Below, one piece after another: positions 905 through 60,266 of a DNA stretch of 64,000 nucleotides; within the stretch, counting starts at the first letter, position 1; each line of letters begins with the position of its first letter. Origin of the DNA: Euglena gracilis (lineage: Eukaryota); NCBI GenBank assembly GCA_039621445.1, contig CP154954.1, forward strand, positions 44,991,847 through 45,055,846, read 5' to 3'. Position numbers and translations under genes: made by a program. The notes beneath the pieces were generated by a model that was given only the letters and a program-made list of their open reading frames with translations, was not told the origin of the DNA and ran no database searches.

Positions 905-3900
905 ATTGCCCAACGGCATCTCACGCCACCATGCAGGGAACAACATGGGGGTGGATGACAACTCGGACGTGTTGGGTCAGGCAGCCCTCAATGCTGCTGC
1001 CCTCCTCGTAACCCAAACCGCCTCTACCACAGACAAGTTATTGTTGGTGTAGTTGTTGTTGTTGTTGTTGTTGTTGCAGGCTTGTGCTCAGTCGGGTGCC
1101 TACACCACGGGGGGGTGATAGGGGCAGGCACCTTATAGCACCCCATCCGACCCTCCGGGGTGTGGTAGGGTTTTTGTGGGTGCCTGCCCATAGCAGCCCT
1201 CCGACCCCAGTGCCAAAGGCACCGGGGGCCCGGAAAAGGCCATTTTCAATGAAAATTTCTGGGTCCCCCCGGACCCCCCCGGGGGGTGTGCCTGCTAGGG
1301 GCAGGCACCCTAGAGCACCCCCCCCCCCGGTTCACAAACATGTGTTGTTGTTGTTGTTTCTGCTGCTGCTGCTGCTGCTGCTGCTGCTGCTGCTGTCTGA
1401 TCTTTGCCTGGGGCAGGGAGGGGGGCCCAACAGACTAGACGTCGCCGTTGTGTGAATCAATTTTGCTTCATTTTGGTTCCTCTTTTTTTTAAGAAAAAAA
1501 GAATGGCCGTTAAAATGAGCTAGAAAATTGATATCATGTGTGAAAAATGGTGCACCAGAAATGGCTAAAATTATTCTGAAAGAGGTGATATCTAACAAGG
1601 CCAAATGGCCGCCAAGGATTGTTGGCTATCATTTTTAAAAGTCAAAAAAAAAAAGCGGAAAGACTGAAAAATTATCTAAACGGACATGACACCCCTTTGT
1701 CCCCCATTTTATGCCGATCATTTCTGATTTTGGTTCCCCCCCTAGGACCCCCCCAAAAGAGTGTTAGCTGGTGGGTGGTAAACGGTTTGCGCCCCCTGGC
1801 CCCCCTGGCTTTGGCGTTTCTGAGTTTCTTATTTCAACATTGCAACAGGCCAAAGGCCGCCTATAAGGTTGGCTCATAATTGTCAAAAGTCAAGAAAACG
1901 CCAAAGTGGCCAGCAATGGGCAAGGTGACAAAATTAGCTAAACGGACATAAACACCCAAAAATTGGCCATATACCCCCATTTATGGCCGAATTTCTGATT
2001 TTGGGTCCCTTCCTCCCCACTAGTCAAAGACCCCCCCTTGACAGCTGGAGTTGAACATTAGCTGTTTTGCGCCCCGCCCCCCACCCCCGGTCAGAGAAAA
2101 AACGCTGGTTTGTGGAAAAAGGAAAGGGTTTGACCCCCCAAAAATGTGCTCTCCCCCCGAGTCCCCCCCCCTGGCCCCCCAGGGAAGAGTGTGCTCTGTG
2201 GGGCGGCAGGGAACCCAGAACCCAACCCAGACCGCCCATAGAGCCGCTGGAGCAGCGGCGGGCGCCAGCCGTGCCTCGACGACTGCCTCGCCACGCGCAG
2301 CTTCGCCGCGTGCCCCCCGCTCTTGGATTCACTTAATACCTGTGTGACCCCACCCCCCAAGGGGAGGGGGTTTGAGTGTGGGTGGTGGGTTGGGGCTGCC
2401 GGACCCTTCCAGGGGGGTGCGCCATCAGTCAGATTTTGGCCCGGCCAAAGGCCGGGCCGAAAAAATTTTATCCAGGGTTTTTGGCTGATTTTGGCTGTAT
2501 TTTGGGTGGGTGGGTGTGGGTGGGTGACCCCGGGGAGGGGTCTTGGGTCGGTGGGTTTTCAAAAAAGTGGGCGGTGGGTTTGGGTCCGGGAAAAAGTGCC
2601 CCCCCCCCCCCCGGGGTCACCAAGCGAATCCGTGGCCCCGCTGCCGGACGCCTGCCGGCAGTGCCTCGGCGTCTGCCTCGACGTGCCGGGCGGCAGCGCG
2701 GCCTGTGTCACCCGCGGGGCGCTGTCCCTGCCGCGTGCATGCGCGCCGTAGTTTGGTCAGTTTCGGCGGTGGCGGCGGGGGCTGTGCGCCCCGCGGCCCC
2801 GACCTCTGCCTGGCTGTGCCGGGGCCGTGCACCCCCTACACCCTCTGCCCCGGCGGTGGCGGGGAAACCGGAAGGCGGGGGCCGCGACTGACTTCCCCAC
2901 CGAAGTTTGTACCGATGGTGCGCGGGGTCAGGGTGCAATGGACGGAGGGTGTACGTTCAGGTGAGGGTCCCCCACCTCCCCCCTTCTTGGACCGGACGGG
3001 GGCGCGGGGGGGTTCCGACCTGCCACCTGCCAGGGGGGGGGTCCGCAGCGACCTTGGGGTCCCCCCAAAAGGTCAAAATTTTCTTTCCATCAATTTACGC
3101 CAAAATTTTTGGCAATTTTGCCAAAAATTTTGGCAATTTTGCCAAAAATTGTCCCCCCAAAATGGCCCAGAATGGCATTTTTGGCTGATTTGGGGGTGTG
3201 GGGCAAAATTCTTCGCCCGGCGTTTTGTGACAGGGCGAAAAATCAGTCGCTCGGACAGCACCGCTGTTTGGGTGCCCCCCCTCCTGGACTGGGGAAGGGG
3301 TCGACCCACCCCAGGGATGGATGGGAAGCCCTTCGGTATTGAGGTAGGTGGTAGGGGGGGGTCCCGACCACCCCCCCCCTGGGGGGGTAAGGTGGTAGGG
3401 GGGGGTCGCTGAGCTCTTATCCCTTTATGGGTAAGAGCGAAGCTTACCACCGGCGAAACCCCCCCCCTCGACCCCCCCCCTCCCCCCCCCCCCCCCCCCC
3501 GGGTCGGGGCCACCTCGGGAACCGACGGATTATCACCATGATCCCGGCCCGGTTCCCGGAATTTTTTTTTCCAGTCGCGAGCGACTGGATTCCTAGTTTC
3601 CGAATCACCTGGGTTTGACCCCCAACTCCCCGCCAGGCCCGAGTTATTCACGCACGAAGGGGTCCAAACTCGGTAGGATTTACCCGCCCCCCCTGGATAA
3701 GCCCCCCCCCCCTTTGGACTCTGCCATTTCGGCCAAAAAATGTCAATTTTCAAAATATCTCCAAAATGAAGCCAAATCAAAGGAAATGTCCGGAGACCTA
3801 ATTTGAAGCCCTTGGAACGCCCCATCTACCGGTATTTTGATTTCCCCGCAACTCCCCGCCTAGCCCGAGATACGGCCGTTTTCGGCGCACCTGGCCGTTT

Positions 3901-59979: not shown

Positions 59980-60266
59980 CAGACCCCCTCCCCCGCGGGG
60001 AGGGGGGAGGATGGGCGGGTCCCTTGGACCCCCTCCCCCCCCCCCCGGGAGGGGGTAGGGGCTGGTGGGTATATCTTTTTCGGTGCCAAATGCGCCGAGA
60101 AGTTTGAAGAATTTGCTATTTTTAGCATTTTGGCCGTTTTCGGACAAAAAAAAGTGGGTGGGTCCCCCGGGAACCCCTCCCCCAGGGGGGGCCCACCCCA
60201 GGGGGTGGGTGGGTGGGTGCTGACCCCCTCACACCTCCCCCCCCCGGTCTTAAAAAGAAACCCCTG
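59980..60266. mobile_element. hAT-like MITE with internally deleted left TIR
   Basis: CAG…CTTAAAAAGAAACCCCTG; perfect TSD GCTGCAGG (59972-59979, 60267-60274). Confidence 0.75.

Follow-up and report, generated by a model that had tools for sequence, protein, structure and literature searches.

We analysed a 64-kb stretch of the Euglena gracilis genome (64,000 nucleotides of contig CP154954.1 in assembly GCA_039621445.1, positions 44,991,847 to 45,055,846 of the forward strand; hereafter the window), in which short non-autonomous DNA transposons of the MITE (miniature inverted-repeat transposable element) type lie among genes with nonconventional introns. An earlier note on this DNA had proposed that the two are linked by simple arithmetic, whereby the 3 nt and 5 nt that separate the splice sites from the terminal CAG and CTG of a nonconventional intron add up to the 8-bp target-site duplication (TSD) of a hAT-type element. 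The window is G+C-rich (46-67% per 2 kb) and contains numerous small exons as well as microsatellites and repeats of dispersed type. Two paralogous tandem genes of the papain family (Peptidase_C1; Pfam and tblastn), which we call G1 (~29721-41715) and G2 (~47948-57817), are encoded on the plus strand; their intron positions are common to both, and their exons share 78-99% identity (blastn). Exon 11 (38956-39156 in G1 and 56161-56362 in G2) is 99% identical while the remaining exons reach 78-94%, which suggests that local gene conversion may have acted on it.

Our analysis confirmed that the mobile elements in the window are real. At least ten secure non-autonomous DNA transposons of 97-3002 bp begin with CAG, end with CTG (CATG in one family), and carry 8-bp TSDs. 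The elements and related candidates are listed below, with agreement between the two TSD copies given as a fraction and with no strand assigned to any of them.

1077-1342: MITE of family A (CAGGCTTGTGC...CATG), 266 bp; TSD 8/8, within a GTT microsatellite
2322-2634: 313-bp element bearing terminal inverted repeats (TIRs; CTTGGATTC...GAATCCGTG) in the Cys-rich open reading frame (ORF) C1; TSD 2314-2321/2635-2642, 7/8
3312-6313: non-autonomous element of 3002 bp with a 19-nt perfect TIR (CAGGGATGG...) and an internal 163-bp tandem array; TSD 8/8
13187-13590: MITE of family C (CAGGCTTTTGCTTAAGG), 404 bp; TSD GTCCTCGT, 8/8; 15/15 terminal pairs
18710-19126: MITE of family B (CAGGGTTCGATATAAGG), 417 bp; TSD GTTTACCC, 8/8
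21867-22132: MITE (CAGGCTTCTTTTTAAG), 266 bp; TSD 7/8
25319-25600: MITE, copy of family A; TSD 5/8
30607-31430: MITE of 824 bp nested in G1 intron 1; TSD GACCCCCT, 8/8
36391-36780: MITE of family B, 390 bp, nested in G1 intron 9; TSD CCCCCAGG, 8/8
43331-43427: MITE-like element of 97 bp; TSD CCGGTGGC, 8/8; 12/15 terminal pairs
46552-46669: MITE of 118 bp, a short relative of family A; TSD ACACCAAC, 8/8
50220-50512: MITE of family A (CAGG...CATG), 293 bp, between G2 exons; TSD TTCTGGTC, 8/8
57189-57287: MITE of 99 bp in the last intron region of G2; TSD 7/8
59980-60266: CAG...CTG stretch, doubtful as an element; flanks 8/8, TIR identity 3/15

A search of the window for identical 8-mers around inverted termini returned 3312-6313 (19-nt perfect TIR), 13187-13590 (17 nt), and 18710-19126 (18 nt), the rest of its output being low-complexity sequence. 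When flanks of different lengths were scanned with imperfect TIRs allowed (at least 11/14), CAG-starting matches numbered 6 at length 8 and 1, 1, 0, and 0 at lengths 6, 7, 9, and 10; the scan serves as a test of register because only an 8-bp duplication sets repeat and TIR flush together. Flank identity among the 84 CAG-headed inverted-repeat pairs (at least 11/13) is bimodal, with 7 pairs at 8/8, 2 at 7/8, and 75 at 5/8 or below. The other 63 terminal trinucleotides yielded 9287 pairs, and flanks of at least 7/8 occur in 29 of these, 22 of them in tandem arrays or microsatellites. With 9/84 CAG-headed pairs set against 7 non-repeat cases in 9287, TSD-flanked inverted repeats are ~100-fold more common with CAG than with any other terminal trinucleotide. 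Without the TIR filter there are 82,297 CAG..CTG pairs, for which 1.46 perfect 8-mer flanks are expected by chance and 9 are observed. Three of these nine have poor TIRs, among them 59980-60266, and with a TIR identity of only 3/15 and this chance expectation the stretch is therefore not secure as an element. The earlier count of about ten MITEs thus stands on at least ten secure elements, with the stretch at 59980 indistinguishable from chance, and the seven TSDs that had been described as perfect (13187, 18710, 30607, 36391, 46552, 50220, and 59980) are indeed identical at 8/8 positions and adjoin CAG...CTG or CATG. The TSD of 1077-1342 is uninformative because it lies inside the GTT microsatellite.

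Perfect TIRs in these elements span 10-19 nt, and 12-15 of the first 15 nt are paired in ten elements. Family A comprises 1077-1342, 25319-25600, and 50220-50512, all three of which end in CATG, with the first copy 75-89% identical to the other two; family B comprises the elements at 18710 and 36391, and family C the element at 13187 together with a copy at 59115 that is truncated at one end. The tandem array of the 3-kb element occupies 4168-5754 (9.8 copies of 163 bp, 95% matches), and the element itself lies in non-coding sequence, with no recognisable protein among the 10 ORFs scanned within or overlapping it, while the MITE at 13187 sits in an intron-like stretch of C2, the second copy of the Cys-rich ORF. 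In a DNA sequencing run, summed contig depth in family A and B bins was about a thousand-fold above that of neighbouring bins, a figure that is not a copy number and that fits with both families being high-copy repeats.

The geometry of these elements can be compared directly with the splicing code of euglenid nonconventional introns, which was demonstrated by knock-in in E. agilis and E. gracilis (PNAS 2025, PMC12501133). According to that work, a CAG-CTG pair suffices for splicing when combined with 3-bp and 5-bp spacers, ~12 paired bp, and a purine at the acceptor. Single changes in CAG or CTG abolished splicing of the test intron, and a donor spacer altered by ±1 nt lost function, while for the acceptor spacer 5 bp was optimal, +1 was tolerated, +2 was weaker, and +3 and -1 were poor (PMC12501133). 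In the secure elements of the window, the duplicated 8-mer lies flush with CAG at the left end and with CTG at the right end, such that cutting 3 nt ahead of CAG and 5 nt past CTG removes 3 nt, the element, and 5 nt, and leaves 5 + 3 nt, or one TSD. Since the TSD adjoins the element ends and 8 = 3 + 5, the element and one TSD copy would therefore be removed together; on the actual element sequences this arithmetic, as put forward in the earlier note, is exact. Each cut follows base 5 of its TSD copy, as would also be expected from the junction consensus that the two intron ends are reported to share (PMC11282704).

The elements also conform to the published structural rule, with CAG/CTG and 12-15/15 Watson-Crick terminal pairs in nine of them. 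A terminal helix is present in the minimum-energy fold of all eight elements folded (7-15/15 pairs, at least 13 in 7/8). With the TSDs that they now carry, the acceptor purine would be available in 5/9 elements in one orientation and in 7/9 in the other.

For the introns themselves, RNA support comes from one contig, record 10 of contig set X16 (1215 nt, from a run presumed to be RNA), which contains four pieces of G1 with 0 mismatches (35005-35112, 36030-36144, 38981-39143, and 40987-41135), is therefore a spliced transcript, and fixes four donors and four acceptors. A transcript-derived protein from the same organism was not found for a G1 exon, the best identity being 68% among 12 matches. 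The G1 introns discussed here are as follows, a caret marking the splice junction.

29821-31617, plus strand: intron 1 (GTC CAG AGG...GCTCT TCTCC^G; termini CAGAGGTTTTTTTAAG...CTTTAAAAAAAAAAGCTCT), with putative boundaries placed by frame and homology only
31695-32431, plus strand: intron 2, ccc^ACC CAG...CTG CCCAC^a, the sole in-frame CAG/CTG solution; similarity to the paralog ends at both borders
34791-35004, plus strand: intron 6, cgt^GTG CAG...CTG GCATC^a; acceptor 35005 from the RNA contig, donor predicted from frame and G2
35113-36029, plus strand: introns 7 and 8 around a 60-nt exon, donor aag^GGC CAG, acceptor CTG GCCCC^g; outer sites from the RNA contig
36145-38036, plus strand: intron 9, gga^GGC CAG...CTG TTTCC^g; donor from the RNA contig, acceptor predicted from frame and 34 leftover contig nt
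38072-38981, plus strand: intron 10, variant GAT CAC...GTG GGGCC^a with the 3/5 geometry kept; the contig piece starts at 38981 (1-nt slide)
39145-40987, plus strand: intron 11, conventional GT...AG; its flanks meet in the RNA contig, at record positions 990/991

The donors at 35112 (aag^GGC CAG), 36144 (gga^GGC CAG), and 41135 (ggg^GGC CAG) follow the CAG rule, making 3/4 for the contig; the acceptors also reach 3/4, with 35005 (CTG GCATC^A), 36030 (CTG GCCCC^G), and as the third (38981) a CAC/GTG variant after a 1-nt slide; the fourth donor/acceptor pair is GT-AG. At the junctions that the contig covers, the G1 introns are thus missing from the spliced RNA precisely between these borders. 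CAG at +4 to +6 and CTG at -8 to -6, with ends that are not GT-AG, are found in introns 31695-32431, 34791-35004, and 36145-38036, and NNN-CAG also follows the donors at 35113 and 41136. The first base of the downstream exon is a purine at 32432 (A), 35005 (A), 36030 (G), 38037 (G), and 38982 (A). Variant ends are CAC/GTG at 38072-38981 and AGG/CCC in intron 3. A strict in-frame search for CAG/CTG returned 31695-32431 and 36145-38036, at the coordinates of the earlier note; a ±30-nt helix solver was abandoned, as out-of-frame controls scored equally (10-12 of 12).

Across the 12 introns modelled in G1, the donors comprise 7 with NNN-CAG, 2 variants (CAC and AGG), 1 GT-AG, and 2 unassigned (introns 4 and 5, with G/C-run helices). 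The earlier statement that most introns read NNN-CAG...CTG-NNNNN^purine with paired ends thus applies to 7/12 donors in this gene, next to the two variants and the one GT-AG intron. The letters given for its four example introns (31695-32431, 36145-38036, 7812-8257, and 17391-18498) are present in all four, with the donor of 36145-38036 now confirmed by the RNA contig and 31695-32431 supported by frame and paralog, while 7812-8257 and 17391-18498 are supported by frame continuity only.

The RNA contig requires a 60-nt exon within 35113-36029, the inner placement of which is ambiguous (35246-35305 or 35240-35299); the two solutions that follow the CAG/CTG rule yield 54 nt. The alternatives are an acceptor 7 nt past CTG (35240) or a donor cag^TGT at 35305 without CAG at +4 to +6, and one of the four inner sites is thus 6 nt off the rule. 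Taken with the published tolerance at the acceptor, this argues for a geometry that is preferred and not absolute. Intron length also differs widely between the paralogs: intron 3, with a helix (GGGGGCCCC) of the published CGG-CCG derivative type, measures 497 nt in G1 and ~102 nt in G2. Intron 1 (1.8 kb), which holds the MITE at 30607, is absent from G2, where 47948-48124 forms one continuous exon; the difference may reflect either gain or loss.

Two candidates bear more closely on the possibility that a whole element can act as an intron. The Cys-rich ORF occurs twice, as a continuous copy (C2, 13012-13185) and as a copy (C1) interrupted by 2322-2634, which has a TIR (CTTGGATTC.../CACGGATTC...) and a TSD (CCCCCGCT/GCCCCGCT). 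Once the element and one TSD copy are removed, C1 becomes an ORF collinear with C2 that keeps 7/7 Cys and matches it at 84 of the first 90 nt. Read as an intron, the insert would be exon^GCT CTT...GTG GCCCC^G, in which the 3/5 geometry and the purine fit and CAG/CTG is replaced, with 10/15 Watson-Crick terminal pairs. A protein search with the C2 ORF scored 0/15 candidates. The second candidate and a further putative intron are:

7812-8257, plus strand: putative nonconventional intron with a core (7815-8252) that belongs, by its TIR and subterminal motifs, to the MITE family of 3312
17391-18498, plus strand: putative nonconventional intron in a gene with His/Lys/Glu repeats; the repeat ORF continues across it

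In the first of these, 11/13 nt after CAG at the 5' terminus are those of the 3312 TIR, a match reached by 0.5% of 2293 control 16-mers, and subterminal motifs are common to the putative intron and the 3312 element. Its removal joins ORF 6906-7811 in frame to 8258-8440, with a flank identity of 4/8; a paralog of exon 8258-8341 at 24180-24248 has only a short motif in common with it and is uninformative on the intron. The 5' terminus of 17391-18498 matches family C at 9/13 positions, with a flank identity of 5/8. This intron lies in a gene (17100-21700) with long His/Glu/Lys-rich repeats, in which a 27-bp tandem array at 20542-21511 (35.9 copies, 93% matches) encodes HEEHKEGER-like units and related units occur at 17300-18600 and 19729-20004. 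When the 16 termini of eight introns were compared with 26 MITE termini, the mean match was 7.1/13 vs 6.2/13 for control CAG 16-mers, and 6/16 termini reached at least 8/13 vs 14.8% of controls (binomial 0.022).

We hypothesize from these observations that nonconventional introns originate from transposons and that the 3- and 5-nt spacers allow scarless excision, a reading to which we assign a probability of about 0.6. Several families of short non-autonomous DNA transposons with CAGG(G/C) ends would integrate with an 8-bp duplication, which is the hAT pattern, and the nonconventional splicing of Euglena would read their terminal CAG/CUG helix, with one cut lying 3 nt upstream of CAG and the other, before a purine, 5 nt downstream of CUG. 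A transcribed insertion, in either orientation, would then be excised with exactly one TSD copy, which would restore an uninterrupted message. Nonconventional introns would most likely be fossil insertions of such elements, and the splicing pathway would in effect render exon insertions harmless. The analysis shows the elements, the length and register of their TSDs, the intron geometry, and the agreement of the MITE ends with the published code, and from these we infer the splicing of intact elements, the descent of old introns from them, and a hAT-type transposase.

Several results weigh against this hypothesis. RNA evidence for the splicing of a MITE with an intact TSD was not found, with reads placed on 30550-50549 only and raw RNA at no more than ~3 reads per bin on G1. 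The four MITEs within the G1 and G2 models all lie inside older introns (30607 in intron 1 and 36391 in intron 9 of G1; 50220 and 57189 in G2). No TSD trace was found in nine older introns, as the residual 8-nt duplication that the proposal predicts in 5+3 register is no better (28/72) than at 12 shifted registers (18-30/72), while the MITE control gives 85/88; this fits old introns, because most are common to both paralogs and retain 7-12/15 terminal pairs. Family A, with its CATG end, fails the published CAG/CTG requirement. The C1 insert has CTT/GTG in place of CAG/CTG, and with its TSD it amounts to 321 nt, or 107 in-frame stop-free codons that keep ORF 2242-2751 open, so that read-through might occur as well, and C1 itself may be inactive. 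The terminus comparison covers eight hand-chosen introns, two of which are homologous and two of which rest on frame only. Finally, Pfam scans of 20 ORFs in the window (the 10 longest and 10 within or overlapping the 3-kb element) found no transposase, their one match being Peptidase_C1.

Much of this could also be explained by coincidence, with ordinary MITEs gathering in introns and intergenic sequence, introns arising by other means (e.g. double-strand-break repair, Milanowski et al. 2016), and the 3/5 geometry reflecting an enzyme that measures from the helix. Both the location of the placeable MITEs in introns and not in exons and the missing TSD trace in old introns would follow from such an account; likewise, 8-nt repeats were read as repair scars by their discoverers (PMC4770533), and an acceptor spacer that tolerates +1 or +2 nt (PMC12501133) is not a rigid geometry. 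On the other hand, coincidence would have to account at once for the same terminal trinucleotides, the same position of the helix, and spacers whose sum is the TSD length, and break repair predicts neither a fixed 8-nt repeat nor inverted termini. The TIR and TSD of the filled/empty paralog pair at 2322-2634 and the match of the 7812-8257 terminus to a MITE family point the same way, and we regard coincidence as unlikely.

A further alternative reverses the order of events, such that the splicing system came first and transposons, or mobile copies derived from introns, adapted to it, with CAG...CTG ends as intron mimicry. The CATG end in 3/3 family A copies lends itself to this account, as it indicates that transposition can do without the CAG/CTG pair, and excised nonconventional introns, reported as circles (review PMC11282704), could in principle reintegrate. 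However, a constant 8-bp TSD is not what reintegrated RNA circles would lead one to expect, and 8-bp TSDs with short TIRs are general in eukaryotic hAT elements (PMC3942097) and thus probably older than the euglenid pathway; a reversed order therefore appears improbable to us, and considerably so.

Given transposon origin and scarless excision, the hAT label appears probable. The TSD lies directly at the termini of the window elements and the inverted repeats fall within the 10-25 bp class, as in hAT elements, which have 10-25-bp TIRs and 8-bp TSDs (PMC3942097). The label proposed in the earlier note is thus likely from TSD length and TIR form, with no transposase found among the 20 ORFs scanned, including the 10 within or overlapping 3312-6313 (Pfam). 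The terminal consensus of hAT elements is pyrimidine-A-purine-N-G. By this consensus the CAGGG families fit, while the CAGGC families (A, C, 21867, and 46552) differ at the fifth letter, and the start of the 3312 TIR presumably resembles that of maize Ac. Another superfamily with TSDs of ~8 bp would leave the arithmetic unchanged and alter only the label; P, Merlin, and some Mutator-like elements have such TSDs. The CATG ends of family A, two families that begin CAGGC and not CAGGG, and the missing transposase would be compatible with this, as would the finding that the Ac-type target preference is matched at both letters in 0/11 TSDs. Against it, TIRs of 12-19 bp that begin with CAGGG and adjoin a TSD of precisely 8 bp are what a textbook hAT element shows (PMC3942097), and we consider a non-hAT superfamily doubtful, if still a serious contender.

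In addition to these features, we identified other repeats and read patterns in the window. The stretches 13640-13880, downstream of the MITE at 13187, and 61670-61925 have in common clustered copies of a short repeat of the CTGTCAGGGTCC type (80-97% identity), and arrays of a TTCCGCATTT-like 10-bp unit occupy 12153-12729 (score 209-216). Another dispersed repeat occurs at 31879-32113, 45823-46058, and 56740-56814 (75-79% identity), one copy being within G1 intron 2. In the raw RNA run, several hundred reads end in long stretches of C or G at 42132-42150 and 43373-43393, the second of which lies in element 43331-43427, and the two sites are joined on opposite strands by 322 reads; this pattern is probably a homopolymer or inverted-repeat artefact. 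Metagenome scans with a family B pattern gave 76 single matches, 12 of which have a weak partner repeat and 0 of these 12 a TSD, and we rejected these as chance matches; a family A pattern gave 0 matches in the same type of scan, and Rfam 0 matches.

Mobile elements that behave as introns are familiar from other systems. Maize Ds/Ac insertions in exons, which also belong to hAT, were reportedly spliced from pre-mRNA like an intron (a report attributed to Giroux et al. 1994); this splicing is said to use cryptic spliceosomal sites and usually to change the message, and so not to be scarless. Introner elements in Micromonas, Aureococcus, and dinoflagellates are likewise DNA transposons of small size, equipped with TIRs and TSDs, that turn into introns when they insert, with the TSD forming part of the junction, but the spliceosome excises them at GT/GC-AG sites supplied by the element or the TSD, and their TSDs measure 3-5 nt (PMC11282704). 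In the system described here, by contrast, excision would be defined by a helix, would probably be non-spliceosomal, and would remove a whole 8-nt TSD copy. The MITE-derived introns of Fritillaria borealis are species-specific, with TIRs, TSDs, and non-GT/AG borders (Henriet et al. 2019, via PMC11282704), and differ in that a modified U2 spliceosome acts on them with AG-AC/AT junction rules (PMC11282704). The window elements share the 8-bp TSD, 10-25-bp TIR, and lack of coding capacity of hAT-superfamily MITEs (PMC3942097; PMC3517528), of which they are putative members.

The window introns are members of the known class of euglenid nonconventional introns (PMC12501133; Milanowski et al. 2014, 2016), with CAG at +4 to +6, CTG at -8 to -6, paired ends, and a following purine. 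An origin of these introns from MITE-like insertions, with direct repeats noted at the junctions, was proposed by Milanowski et al. 2014 (PMC3935182), and a 2024 review refers to intron termini as TIRs and to the junction repeats as TSD-like (PMC11282704). Junction repeats were reported in 84.4% of E. agilis introns by a study that left 'slidable' introns out of its genome-wide analysis and suggested that the splicing machinery may mitigate transposon insertions (PMC12501133). PMC3935182, PMC11282704, and PMC12501133 name no superfamily, give no TSD length, and draw no connection from 3 + 5 to 8, and the introns with junction repeats are set aside as 'slidable'. We did not find the link between spacers and TSD length in the literature searched, a provisional result in that subscription journals and supplements were thinly covered. 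Intron geometry, MITE origin, and transposon tolerance are thus already in print, and only the link of 3 + 5 to 8 appears new; taken separately, the MITEs and the introns are ordinary examples of kinds already known, and it is their connection that is of value.

The strongest outside support for transposon origin with scarless excision is a nonconventional intron (intron 4) in gapC of E. agilis, which is present in one strain only, hence recent, and carries direct repeats of eight nucleotides at the junctions (PMC4770533). These repeats are longer than in any other intron of Milanowski et al. 2016, whose reading was break repair (PMC4770533). A recently gained intron of this kind fits our hypothesis in the length of its repeats.

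More tentatively, and at less than even odds in our judgement, nonconventional splicing might be an RNA-level excision tuned to hAT-type insertions that would clear each insertion in an exon from the message, the majority class of Euglena introns (~70% in E. agilis) fossil hAT-like MITEs, and the 'slidable' repeats decayed TSDs, with the 2-nt offset between cut and helix pointing to a helix-measuring endonuclease and ligase of the tRNA type and not to the spliceosome. The gain and removal of euglenid nonconventional introns is a long-standing question, with a cis code that was not defined until 2025. Genomes and transcriptomes already available, together with the knock-in assay in print, make the idea that 3 + 5 = 8 testable. 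If the spacers do exist to match an 8-bp TSD, this would explain the origin of most Euglena introns, the junction repeats in most of them, the single consensus at both junctions, and the tolerance of massive intron gain.

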